Below, piece by piece: positions 16,234-20,596 of a stretch of DNA of 20,596 nt (within the stretch, counting starts at the first letter, position 1; every line of letters starts with the position of its first letter). Origin of the DNA: Nitrosopumilales archaeon (GTDB taxonomy: Archaea; Thermoproteota; Nitrososphaeria; Nitrososphaerales; Nitrososphaeraceae); the NCBI GenBank assembly GCA_044507735.1, contig JBIQJB010000032.1, positions 1-20,596 of the forward strand, written 5' to 3'. Made by a program: the position numbers and the translations under genes. The notes beneath the pieces were generated by a model. It ran no database searches and was not told where the DNA came from. It saw nothing but the letters and a program-made list of their open reading frames with translations.

Positions 16234-17118
16234 TTGATTGGGAAATCTACGACTACGACTGCTGCTGCCATGGTGGCAGCAGCCCTTCTCTCAGGAGCCT
16301 CTGTCGTTCCGATGACTGCTTTTGCACTAACGGTAATCGGGACAGACCGTGCAGACACTTTGAAAGGCACAGACAATTCAGACACGATCTATGGTAAGGC
16401 AGGTGCTGACAAGATTCACGGATACAGGGGCAACGACATTTTATACGGCGGGCGTGGAGATGACAAGATCTGGGGAGGAAGTGGTAACGACAACATCTAT
16501 GCATGGCACGGTAACAACTATGTGAGCGGCGGAGAGGGTTCTGACACCATCTACGCGACGGGAGACCCTGAAGCTAACGACAAGGACTACAATGAGCTGA
16601 AAGGCTTTGGGGGCGATGACAAATTCATTGTAAGACATTCAGGCGCCACAATCCATGGAGGCACGGGAAATGACAACGTTACCGCAATAGCTGATGCCGG
16701 CTTTGGAGGGTTCATCATCTACATGGGTCCCGGAGATGACTATGCAAGTGCTGTTGACAACCAAGCGGACATATTTGGAGGGGACGGCAATGACAGGCTC
16801 ATCGCAACTGGGGAAGCCGTCCATGAGGTATTTGGCGAAGGCGGCGACGACTGGATACACATCAGCACCGATGTTGGAAGCGTTGCTAAGGGTGGCGATG
16901 GAGACGACTATATCCTCAGCACGTTCGAAGGCACGCTGTATGGAGAAGAAGGAGACGACATACTCGAATCAAGAAGCCCGAAAGCATACAATATCATGAT
17001 TGGAGGGCCGGGCGCTGACGAGTTCAGATGCTATGGCGGATATGATTCGGTAGAGGATTTTGATGAAGATGAAGGCGATACAATATTGGGCACCTGTGAA
17101 TCAATAAATGGGGAATGA
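16234..17118 (+). CDS. Secreted RTX/hemolysin-type calcium-binding repeat protein
   Basis: Signal-peptide-like N-terminus (AAAMVAAALLSGASVVPMTAFA) followed by many GGxGxDxUx nonapeptides (GTDRADTLK, GKAGADKIH, GYRGNDILY, GGRGDDKIW, GGSGNDNIY, GGEGSDTIY, GGDGNDRLI, GGPGADEFR). Confidence 0.88.
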   Translation: MIGKSTTTTAAAMVAAALLSGASVVPMTAFALTVIGTDRADTLKGTDNSDTIYGKAGADKIHGYRGNDILYGGRGDDKIWGGSGNDNIYAWHGNNYVSGGEGSDTIYATGDPEANDKDYNELKGFGGDDKFIVRHSGATIHGGTGNDNVTAIADAGFGGFIIYMGPGDDYASAVDNQADIFGGDGNDRLIATGEAVHEVFGEGGDDWIHISTDVGSVAKGGDGDDYILSTFEGTLYGEEGDDILESRSPKAYNIMIGGPGADEFRCYGGYDSVEDFDEDEGDTILGTCESINGE

Positions 17119-18458: not shown

Positions 18459-18567
18459 GGGCCCGTCGCCCAGTCAGGATAGGGTGCTGTTCATCGCCTT
18501 TTGATAATAAGAGATGAGCACATGCCTCCGGAGCCAGTTGTCGTGGGATCGAAGCCCACCGGGCCCG
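18459..18567 (+). tRNA. tRNA-Arg (anticodon CCG) with a 34-nt intron at position 29/30 (18490-18523)
   Basis: Acceptor GGGCCCG/CGGGCCC plus G73. D arm GCCC-AGTCAGGATA-GGGT. After splicing, anticodon arm CTGGC-CTCCGGA-GCCAG. T arm GTGGG-ATCGAAG-CCCAC. Full CCA is not encoded (CCT follows), then a T-run. Confidence 0.93.
18481..18527 (+). other. Bulge-helix-bulge splicing motif of the tRNA intron
   Basis: AGG-GTGC-TGT-TCATC...GATGA-GCAC-ATG-CCT: 4-bp central helix GTGC/GCAC, 3-nt bulges TGT and ATG, flanking helices AGG/CCT and TCATC/GATGA. Cutting after the second bulge base restores the anticodon stem exactly. Confidence 0.9.
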
Positions 18568-18754
18568 CCTTTTCCAAATATCGAGTCCGCGCCTTAAAGG
18601 CGTAGAAAACACGGAATTACCGGAGGGAATTCAGGGAACCAACAGCAATTGTCGCAAACACAGCAGGAAGAGAAGAAGCAAGGACCTTCTTTCAGACGAC
18701 GACGTAAGAAGGTGGTACGAAAACCTGTGCCGCAGCAGCAAGCTCAACGCCGAC

Positions 18755-20035
18755 GTGTATTTGAGGAGGCTAAGATTGTTCTGTGAGCAAAGAAAAACAA
18801 CCCCAAAGCGGCTTGTCACCATCGGCACTGCCAACGCAAAGCAGGTCGAGGACATGCTGCATGACCACGTACAGCAGCTTGAAACACAAGGGTATGCGCC
18901 ATCGTATATCAAGGGTGTCCTGAAGGCAGTCAAGTCATGGCTTTCGTACAACTACATTGACCTGAAGCGAAAAATCAGGGTGGCAAACGCAGACATGGCA
19001 GTCACCTTGCAGGACGAAAGGGTACCAACACGGGAAGAGCTGAAGGGTATACTCAACCATGCTTCGATAAGAGCGAGGGCAAGCGCAGGTTTGATCGCAT
19101 TTGCCGGGCTGAGGCCGCAGGTGCTGGGAAACGCTTCTGCAAATGATGGACTGACCATCGGAGACATTCCTGACCTAAAGATAGTCGACGATGACAACGG
19201 CGGCAAGAAGGCCGTATTTCAGACAGTGCCGGCAATGGTCGTTGTAAGAGCGTCACTTAGCAAGGCAAGGCACCGGTACTTTACATTCCTGACAAGTGAG
19301 GGGTGTGAATATCTGGCTGCGTATCTTAACAAACGCATTACTGCGGGAGAGGTTCTCAATGAAAGCTCTGCTGTCATAACCCTGAGCCAAGGATACTTGA
19401 TGAAGGGAAGAAACAAGGATGTCAGCAAGAAGTTTGTCACCACACCTGCAATCACGAAGGAGGTCCGCGAAGCTATGCTGCCGGTAATCAAGGCTAGGCC
19501 GTATGTTCTGAGGGCGTACTTTGACACCCAGCTGCTTTTGGCAGAGAGCCAGAGCAAGATTGCTCATGCATACAGACAGTTCTTCATGGGGCACAAGGGA
19601 GACATCGAGGCTAGGTACACCACGAACAAGGGAAGGCTGCCTGATGAATTGCTGACGGACATGAGGAGAGCCTTCAGAGAGTCAGAACCGTTCTTGAGCA
19701 CGGCTACAGCGGAGGTTCAGGAACAAGACAGAAAACAGCTGCTGCTTGAAATGTGGCGTGAGCAGGCCAAGCTTTACGGCATCGACCCTATGAAGATAAA
19801 GATAGAGAAGCAGAGAGAAGACAAGCCTCTTGGCATCGAAGATGAAATGCTTGCGATAAAAGACGCGATTGCAAAGACAAGGGAACTGGATGAAGAGGAA
19901 GGAAAGTACGAGAGCAGGATCTTGGCAGACGAAGAAGAGCTTGTCTCCTGTGTCCGGGATGGATGGGACATAGTAAAAGAGCTGAGGAGCGGCAAGGTTC
20001 TTGTCAGGAGGAAGGCTTGTCAATTAACAACCTGA
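18755..20035 (+). CDS. Tyrosine recombinase/integrase (true N-terminus lies upstream of the first canonical start)
   Basis: Catalytic set visible: R (FAGLRPQVLG), K (SKARHRY), YxxR (RPYVLRAYF), H (FFMGHKG), Y (IEARYTTNK). Directly downstream of a tRNA 3' end. The frame is open from 18518. Confidence 0.9.
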   Translation: MYLRRLRLFCEQRKTTPKRLVTIGTANAKQVEDMLHDHVQQLETQGYAPSYIKGVLKAVKSWLSYNYIDLKRKIRVANADMAVTLQDERVPTREELKGILNHASIRARASAGLIAFAGLRPQVLGNASANDGLTIGDIPDLKIVDDDNGGKKAVFQTVPAMVVVRASLSKARHRYFTFLTSEGCEYLAAYLNKRITAGEVLNESSAVITLSQGYLMKGRNKDVSKKFVTTPAITKEVREAMLPVIKARPYVLRAYFDTQLLLAESQSKIAHAYRQFFMGHKGDIEARYTTNKGRLPDELLTDMRRAFRESEPFLSTATAEVQEQDRKQLLLEMWREQAKLYGIDPMKIKIEKQREDKPLGIEDEMLAIKDAIAKTRELDEEEGKYESRILADEEELVSCVRDGWDIVKELRSGKVLVRRKACQLTT

Positions 20036-20360
20036 GCAGCATCTCTACAGCCTTTTCCTTCTTTTTGTACGCATCTTCAGATATAGCTGATAAAAGTGTG
20101 TTTACCAGTTCAAGATAAGGCTCGATAGCGCTGCTTACAACGACATCGACAAATTCATGCTGCAGTGTCTGTAGCGCCTCGTCGACATCTGATGAATAGA
20201 CGAATATGGTATTGCCAACAACTTCACCTTCCTTCTTTGAATCTGCTTTAGGAGCCCCTATGACCTTAAAGTCGGTCTTTATTCCCGTTCTGGCCTTTAG
20301 CCTTTCCAGCTCTTCTTCGAGGATGAGTGAGAAGCCGTTTTGTTCAAGTCTCGGATTCAT
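20004..20360 (-). CDS. Hypothetical protein with degenerate HExxD (zincin-like) motif, convergent with the integrase
   Basis: EELERLK..TG....FKV...P......GEV.GNTIFVY...V.EALQTLQHEFVD. Probable start is ATG20360. 32-nt 3' overlap with the integrase. Confidence 0.72.
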   Translation of the reverse strand: MNPRLEQNGFSLILEEELERLKARTGIKTDFKVIGAPKADSKKEGEVVGNTIFVYSSDVDEALQTLQHEFVDVVVSSAIEPYLELVNTLLSAISEDAYKKKEKAVEMLLRLLIDKPSS

Positions 20361-20596
20361 TGCCAAATGAGAAGTCAAATGCATAAAAGCCGTGAAACCG
20401 GCTGAAATTTGGTGCCTGGGAGCATGGTTTTCGCCTTAAATATTTTGGACATGTGTAGTACAGTGCCAGGAAAGACAGATGCCCTGACGTTTGTTTCAAA
20501 TGCTGGGTTCGGTTCTAGTAAATAAAAGTTTTGATGCGCGGGGGGCGCTGTTAACTTAGCCTCCATCCCTAGCCAGAAATAATGTGAACCGCATCC

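Follow-up and report, generated by a model that had tools for sequence, protein, structure and literature searches.

An integrase gene of a Nitrososphaera-like archaeon that is probably split at a 13-nucleotide core by its own integration into a tRNA-Arg gene

An integrase gene near the end of a 20,596-nucleotide contig from a Nitrososphaera-like archaeon (NCBI GenBank assembly GCA_044507735.1, contig JBIQJB010000032.1) raises a simple question: where does it start? This stretch, which was analysed at its full length and is called the window here, is the entire contig C25 of the genome denoted G000, and it ends 0.56 kb past the integrase gene (int). On the plus strand, the integrase frame is open from 18518 to a stop codon at 20033-20035, the preceding stop is the TGA at 18515-18517, and the first ATG, GTG or TTG is GTG18755, with 79 sense codons ahead of it. 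The original prediction for this locus was that the attachment (att) site of the free element, attP, lies inside int and that integration into the neighbouring tRNA gene splits the gene. This is supported by a second copy of the att core on contig C46 of the same genome, by 8 of 9 attR copies and by 6 of 6 attL copies, and we consider it very likely that the window integrase is the int(C) half of a self-splitting gene. The argument is built on direct observations, namely two att copies, a shared frame, a missing start, a pattern of selection and recurrence in relatives.

The start-less lead before GTG18755 was borne out by a frame scan, and the peptide quoted for it in the original prediction matches the translation. 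Among the stop-to-stop frames of at least 400 codons in G000, a start-less lead of at least 79 codons occurs in 7 of 470, and the median lead is 6 codons; the six further frames of this kind lie on C9, C10, C17, C33, C43 and C44. The conserved N-terminus that had been proposed to begin at 18686 is real, with homologues aligning from about LLSDDDV (18686) onward. The parts of the locus are as follows.

18459 to 18567, plus strand: tRNA-Arg(CCG) gene, the attB target, with exon 1 at 18459-18489, the intron at 18490-18523 and exon 2 at 18524-18567
18518 to 18556, plus strand: incidental open frame within the tRNA, ahead of the att core and outside the integrase gene; the IntN arm replaces it in the rebuilt attP
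18556 to 18568, plus strand: attL copy of the att core, CCACCGGGCCCGC, 13 nt, holding codons 19-22 of the full integrase (CAC CGG GCC CGC)
18569 to 18643, plus strand: linker, 25 codons after the core, open and without peptide constraint, its DNA conserved above synonymous sites elsewhere in the gene
18573 to 18589, plus strand: right arm of an inverted repeat flanking the core in the rebuilt attP (17 nt, 1 mismatch; partner at C46:427-443)
18644 to 18685, plus strand: basic stretch, coding, upstream of the first canonical start
18686 to 18754, plus strand: conserved N-terminal segment LLSDDDVRRWYENLCRSSKLNAD, coding, upstream of the first canonical start
18755 to 20035, plus strand: remainder of IntC, the GTG18755 open reading frame (ORF) as a gene caller would give it, with the core-binding, catalytic and conserved C-terminal domains

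The missing start is found on C46, where an exact second copy of the core CCACCGGGCCCGC lies at C46:455-467. There, a TATATAA at 372-378 is followed by 23 nt, an ATG at 402, 18 codons and then CAC CGG GCC CGC at 456-467, and the ATG opens 22 codons (MSEINRLDSDSISGESGNHRAR, 402-467) in the same core frame as int at attL. The C46 frame stops 4 codons after the core, and the C46 part and the window part, joined at the core, give 22 + 488 = 510 codons. An in-frame start with a TATA motif upstream, as the original prediction proposed for the second att copy, is thus present at C46:372-467. Two of its details came out differently. A direct repeat of the tRNA 3' half exists, but it comprises only 13 nt (18556-18568) and not the 28-nt 3' half, and attR lies on the separate contig C46 and not farther downstream, since the contig that makes up the window stops 0.56 kb past int. 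The flank past the C46 core is syntenic with the flank past attR in the closed genome G097. The inverted-repeat pair around the core is also present in G061:C9 and is conserved in alignments A1 and A2; it may have a binding function.

The same arrangement recurs in relatives. The stretch of IntN and attR was found in 8 of 72 genomes of the genus, and the ATG stands exactly 18 codons before the core, with no stop, insertion or deletion between them, in eight attR copies (G000, G061, G062, G029, two in G097, G003 and the end of L031); the ninth, in G031, is degenerate. None of the conclusions drawn here depends on the unpublished genome G009. From the core to the conserved domain, the frame is open in every one of the attL copies. 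Homology among the attR copies ends right after the core, and in their alignment the 17-20 nt between the TATA motif and the ATG vary and the ATG and the next 63 nt are conserved. On G061:C9, a contig that continues for 40 kb past int, a short-word blast showed the tRNA end to be directly repeated over 15 nt at a distance of 15.9 kb downstream; this repeat is preceded by TATATAA, an ATG and 18 codons that run into CAC CGG GCC CGC in the frame of int at attL. The full 29-mer is present only once on G061:C9; further copies in G061 and G062 lie on different contigs. The complete elements found on single sequences have IntC next to the tRNA and IntN at their opposite end, in direct orientation on one strand.

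G097 (closed genome): 20.3 kb and 5.4 kb
G061:C9: 15.9 kb
L031 (metagenome contig): 7.0 kb

The boundary with the tRNA gene was defined as follows. On the raw window sequence, the tRNA at 18459-18567 was missed by ARAGORN (intron search on or off) and by Rfam, and ARAGORN calls tRNA-Arg(CCG) once 18490-18523 has been removed in a script. The intron has 34 nt, is non-canonical, lies in the anticodon stem and contains TGA18515; the acceptor, D and T arms can be seen by eye, and the acceptor and T arms fold. The call after intron removal agrees with the claim that the frame covers exon 2 and ends at TGA18515 in the intron. That the integrase gene itself runs through the tRNA holds in part: four tRNA codons (CAC CGG GCC CGC) belong to the gene, but the frame upstream of them, 18518-18556, is incidental, and its sequence differs in relatives integrated in the other tRNA-Arg gene. 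The 3' end of tRNA-Arg(CCG) is now supplied by the element.

The pattern of selection indicates where the protein must already be under way. Six attL copies, 81-89% identical, were compared codon by codon (the window, L066 of G061:C9, L065 of G062:C30, L031 and two in G097). The ratio of nonsynonymous to synonymous substitution (dN/dS) is 0.056 in 18686-18754, the 23 codons before GTG18755, 0.127 in the 14 codons of the basic stretch at 18644-18685 and 0.06-0.07 in the remainder of the gene, and every insertion or deletion in the alignment is a multiple of 3. By this comparison, purifying selection (dN/dS 0.06-0.13) acts on the 37 codons ahead of GTG18755. From the dN/dS values and the indel lengths, it follows that translation must start at some point before about 18644, in a region of the window that lacks a canonical start. 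GTG18755, already suspected to be too late, is too late both by these values and by the N-termini of homologues. In the linker, the proportion of synonymous differences is 0.22, versus about 0.5 elsewhere in the gene, and the differences per codon position are 80/50/73; judged from these figures, the tract adjoining the tRNA is conserved as DNA and not as peptide. In an AlphaFold2 model of the integrase, residues 1-32 have a predicted local distance difference test (pLDDT) score below 50 and are predicted to be disordered.

We propose the following model. A cryptic element of a Nitrososphaera-like archaeon would have integrated into the 3' end of tRNA-Arg(CCG) by recombination at the 13-nt core CCACCGGGCCCGC. 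The promoter, the ATG and the first 22 codons (IntN) would thereby have come to lie at attR, C46:372-467, and the other 488 codons would stay beside the tRNA, without a promoter or start codon. On the excised circle, both parts would be united in frame as the 510-codon gene, whose mRNA would have little or no leader. Together with the next 25 codons, IntN would form an open, disordered leader laid over the att arms, and since IntN and the linker would be nothing but such a leader, the split would remove expression signals and not a protein domain. The TATA box on C46 is then the putative int promoter, and IntC would be silent in the integrated state. Excision would restore int expression, which would make the layout a recombination-controlled switch, and the in-place starts of some relatives, described below, may act as a bypass.

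Evidence for mobility comes from sequencing runs. A 47-nt contig from run X4 represents an empty attB, as it links window 18539-18568 to TACCTCTATATCTGACG, the C46 flank; it is assigned to the CCG-type tRNA because T18539 distinguishes this gene from the other tRNA. The depth in X4 is 11.2 for the empty attB, 28.2 for the contig that leads into int and 34.7 for the tRNA 5' side. Because the empty attB coexists with the int-side contig, the element is polymorphic in the X4 sample, which points to recent gain or loss, and X4 may be a source sample. No branch to the C46 flank appears in runs X1 and X2, which both cover the site. At window 18569, X1 and X4 have a loose end that joins the tRNA 3' half to another flank, ACTTTTTAG..., absent from the G000 assembly, and X7 has one at 18572-18573 with a flank, TCTTGATATCTCTC..., that resembles the L031 attR flank. 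Other strains or sites in the sequenced samples appear to use the same core.

Several observations weigh against a split gene and have to be set beside the evidence for it. First, the arms of the attachment site do not behave as peptide. The linker has a dN/dS of 0.76, about 11 differences were counted among the IntN copies in the attR alignment, of which just one is synonymous, and the IntN peptide is, on this count, without purifying selection. The copies are related, so that the open frame in the linker could partly be inheritance, and for the same reason the shared frame amounts to about a single observation. Second, some relatives have possible in-place starts: a TTG at the second Leu of LL in G062 and in both G097 copies, a GTG 13 codons upstream in L031, and an ATG in P0001, P0006 and P0007. 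In elements with such a start, IntC may be translatable without excision. Third, the joined form was not detected. No attP junction is present among the Logan contigs of 4 sequencing runs, in which rare forms are dropped; the first 21 nt of IntN have 0 matches in viral_contigs; and a search of the protein collection with window 18557-18790, at the length setting 'longer', gave no uninterrupted gene (40 candidates scored, 8 matches, the best covering 69%, none reaching the linker and IntN). Fourth, the window protein as query found no IntC in G029 and G003, which carry the IntN/attR stretch. These stretches (G029:C5:10799-10907 and G003:C18:21912-22013) look intact, with the TATA motif and an ATG in frame, and in both genomes chromosomal sequence comes after the TCT-type tRNA. 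Solo remnants, gaps in the assembly or a different partner may account for these stretches.

The best surviving alternative to a split gene is an int gene that is intact in place, with an unconventional start between the tRNA and 18686 (for example, the near-cognate ATT18629) or at GTG18755, and with the ATG and TATA motif at attR serving otherwise or being part of an attP arm that is in frame by chance. Most of the family is indeed unsplit. Of the 40 family loci with an aligned N-terminus, 37 have a canonical start, ATG in 23 cases, no more than 25 codons from the conserved LLxDxDVRRW, and at 17 an in-frame stop occurs within 25 codons; a canonical start is lacking only in the window, L066 and L008. 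A GGAGGG lies immediately upstream of ATT18629, and the lack of peptide constraint in the linker and IntN, as well as the failure to find an uninterrupted gene among the 40 protein candidates, also suits an intact gene. However, no candidate start is conserved: in the window, L066, L065 and L031, the codon at 18629 is ATT, ATA, ATA and AAG, and the codon before EG is CCG, GCG, GCG and GTG. GTG18755 is GTA in L066, L065 and L031, and a start there would lose the 37 codons that are under a dN/dS of 0.06-0.13. In addition, 8 of 9 attR copies have the ATG in frame at a constant distance with no intervening stop, and we therefore regard an intact gene as unlikely. A decaying remnant, in which a once intact integrase lost its start through mutation, with the element being fixed and the decay too recent to have closed the frame, would fit the frameshifted G097B copy, the degenerate G031 attR, the attR stretches of G029 and G003 with no IntC detected and a G000 element that is not traceable across contigs, but it is very improbable, as dN/dS is 0.06-0.07 along the whole gene in 6 copies that are 81-89% identical, the start-less state is common to L066 in another genome, the empty attB in X4 indicates recent gain or loss, and the start codon is exactly where a split gene predicts it.

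With a split gene as the preferred reading, the next question is what kind of enzyme it encodes. The AlphaFold2 model (pLDDT 82.6) has a two-domain fold with a core-binding and a catalytic domain. Foldseek matched it to XerA (5hxy, E 1e-6, probability 1.00), and VIA-align gave XerA (4a8e, Z 17.7, 256 aligned, root-mean-square deviation (rmsd) 11.7), the integron integrase IntI (2a3v, Z 16.0, 275 aligned, rmsd 5.9) and Cre (Z 15.5). SSV1 (3vcf_A, Z 11.4, 153 aligned, rmsd 3.7), whose structure comprises the catalytic domain only, scored about the same as the lambda Int core (1ae9, Z 12.1). In alignment A4 (112 sequences), R182, H342 and Y350 show no variation, and H333 and R336 are conserved in at least 90%; we take these residues to be the catalytic Arg, His-x-x-Arg, His and Tyr of tyrosine recombinases. 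A Pfam scan of the window protein gave just a sub-threshold DUF3467, and a profile search of Protein Data Bank sequences with it gave no meaningful match. PF00589 was matched by 1 of 16 family members (E 6e-4). PF16795 was matched neither by the window protein (E<=0.1) nor by any of the 16 members (E<=1). As judged from the model and these residues, the window protein is a tyrosine recombinase of Xer/Cre-like type. The original comparison with SSV1/pTN3-type integrases therefore stands for the split architecture, which is common to both, but by sequence not for the family, since PF16795 was not matched.

The family is a large thaumarchaeal one, with 2352 matches at E<=1e-3 among 7999 candidates scored. 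Members outside the clade of the window mostly have an ATG 5-10 residues ahead of LLxDxDVRRW. In the close clade (81-93% identical, with names of Nitrososphaera sp.), the starts assigned by gene callers are inconsistent: MKDDDV, LQDEDV, VRRW, MRRW, VYLRRL, VEG... and MLHDHV. In L036, whose contig ends within int, and in protein P0014 (57-58% identical), the tRNA T arm is likewise read through, in the same frame (RGRGF[KE]SHP...), and no ATG is near LL; they may represent a second split lineage.

The targets of these elements are of two types. Close relatives carry either the CCG-type tRNA or a second type that is recognised by Rfam (42.8 bits) and has the same 29-nt 3' half (GTCGTGGG...CCCGC), and both types are used as targets. 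The tRNA-Arg(CCG) gene, with a different intron, is upstream of int in L066/G061 and in G097A; between genomes, this intron varies in length and sequence (alignment A1). In G000, the second tRNA-Arg gene (TCT type, with an intron) is at the very end of contig C3 (C3:163352-163441). Searching G000 with the tRNA 3' half (the 29-nt stretch 18540-18568), as had been suggested, does give a match, but this match is the C3 tRNA end and not attR. The last 29 nt of C3 were considered as an attR candidate and rejected, being the 3' half of the second, Rfam-confirmed TCT-type tRNA; with this tRNA at the C3 end, the search therefore finds no attR. Read as its reverse complement, C22 opens with the 13-nt core and continues into a flank that resembles the one after the L031 attR, and from its sequence it looks like the native flank of the C3 tRNA, that is, an unoccupied second attB split by the assembler. 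In L113 (G003:C37), the TCT-type tRNA directly precedes the flank TAAATGTATAAC...GCTCAAATGATGACCTG, a homologue of which follows the attR of the CCG-type-tRNA element in G097 (after 2177246) and in G000 (C46:468-573). This pairing may reflect a chromosomal rearrangement between the two tRNA-Arg att cores.

The G000 element is spread over contigs, and blastn matches it to G097A only in int, in the 20004-20384 ORF and over some 240 nt ahead of attR. The window, which ends at 20596, shares conserved DNA with the G097A and G061 elements as far as about 20449. An insertion sequence or transposase (element position about 2281-2985) follows int in G097A, and copies of it are on C38, C17, C1 and C18 of G000; a repeat near 20450-20596 probably broke the assembly. 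In the 5.4-kb G097 element (G097B), IntC is frameshifted. Other features of the elements concern clustered regularly interspaced short palindromic repeats (CRISPR). Two copies of a 30-nt CRISPR-like repeat with a 37-nt spacer lie at C46:1-97 (L089), about 300 nt inside the element from attR. Contig C12 begins with 65 copies of this repeat (<=4 mismatches; C12:55-4314), followed by a transposase-like fragment, and an array is directly before attR in G097A. The CRISPR array thus seems to move together with the element. A 294-aa ORF at window 16234-17118 (plus strand), beyond the tRNA on the chromosomal side, is rich in GGxGxD-like repeats (GTDNSDTIYGKAGADKIHGYRGNDILYGGRGDD...) and by its sequence resembles calcium-binding RTX-type repeats. 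One more ORF of the window lies inside the element.

20004 to 20384, minus strand: small convergent ORF of 126 aa inside the element, from the ORF list

Compared with the known split integrases, the system described here has both common and distinct features. According to the accessible part of a 2021 review on archaeal tyrosine recombinases, the suicidal (She type I) integrases of SSV1, pTN3 and pT26-2 have attP inside int, with int(C) by the tRNA and int(N) at the other end, and the intact int gene is found only in the free form; PF16795 (Phage_integr_3) is the domain assigned to the SSV, pTN3-like and pT26-2-like integrases; and these enzymes are described as of single origin, with att sites of 40-50 bp, and as tied to hyperthermophilic archaea (PMC8371274). 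As in SSV1, pTN3 and pT26-2, attP here lies in the int frame, the tRNA 3' end is the target, and IntC and IntN stand at opposite ends in direct orientation. Unlike in those systems, attL and attR are identical over 13 nt in G000 and over 15 nt in G061, versus the att sites of 40-50 bp given in that text (PMC8371274). Unlike in SSV and pTN3, moreover, IntN has 22 codons and is unconstrained, the best structural matches are XerA, IntI and Cre, and the host is, going by the names that its homologues bear, Nitrososphaera-like and not a hyperthermophile. The window locus most likely has the architecture of suicidal integrases, but not their family, att length or host range. With XerA and the classical She type II (pNOB8-like) integrases, it has in common the two-domain Xer/Cre fold, and most members of its family are intact beside a tRNA. 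In contrast to She type II, the frame in the clade of the window is extended upstream across attP, with the start and promoter beyond the crossover.

Elements of the same genus have been reported, and what follows is limited to the accessible text of that report. NitVie-E1 of Nitrososphaera viennensis is 5.4 kb long, with att CCGGGCCCGCTT and tRNA-Arg(TCT) as target (Krupovic et al. 2019, PMC6563490). NitVie-E4 is 20.3 kb long, with att CCACCGGGCCCGCT, tRNA-Phe(GAA) as target, a CRISPR-Cas system with type I-B cas genes, and VirB6; its integrase is listed as XerD/XerC family (arCOG01245), and the accessible text mentions no split (PMC6563490). The element described here has the same att core as NitVie-E1 and NitVie-E4 and a tRNA-Arg-type target, and their 20.3 and 5.4 kb are the sizes of the G097 elements. 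NitVie-E4 carries a CRISPR array, and on C46 the two CRISPR-like repeats lie beside attR. The homologous target is listed as tRNA-Phe(GAA) for NitVie-E4, whereas ARAGORN gives Arg(CCG) in the window after intron removal. NitEve-E3 of Ca. Nitrososphaera evergladensis has an SSV1-like split integrase, a 46-nt att and a tRNA-Glu target, and it is the only element called both SSV1-like and split in the accessible text (PMC6563490). It resembles our element in having a split integrase in an integrated element of the same genus and is set apart here on its published description; the IntN/attR DNA of our family is confined to 8 of 72 genomes of that genus. Our literature search, as far as the texts were accessible, found no paper that calls this integrase family split.

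These comparisons lead us to a broader proposal, which we consider possible without calling it probable. The suicidal layout would have arisen a second time, independently of SSV and pTN3, in a Xer-like family of ammonia-oxidising soil archaea whose other members are intact. The frame would have been extended upstream across attP, so that integration cuts off only the promoter, the ATG and a dispensable disordered leader, and the codon at the second Leu of LLxDDD (CTT/CTG versus TTG/ATG) would toggle between a locked-in integrase and one that can be started in place.

In conclusion, a probable self-splitting layout is described in a Xer-like family of Nitrososphaera relatives in which intact sister genes are 45-63% identical. 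The layout could tie integrase expression to the excised state. It also bears on annotation, as gene callers assign six different false starts in this clade, one of which is listed as an intact XerC/D gene in the accessible part of a published annotation. Furthermore, some of these elements carry CRISPR arrays, and the control of their mobility thus bears on the spread of defence systems in ammonia oxidisers. The origin and survival of suicidal integrases are presented as a paradox in the accessible part of the review (PMC8371274). With intact sister genes at hand, a family-wide comparison could reveal the steps of such an origin, and if our proposal is true, this family would offer a living intermediate in the long-standing question of how such integrases arose and persist.

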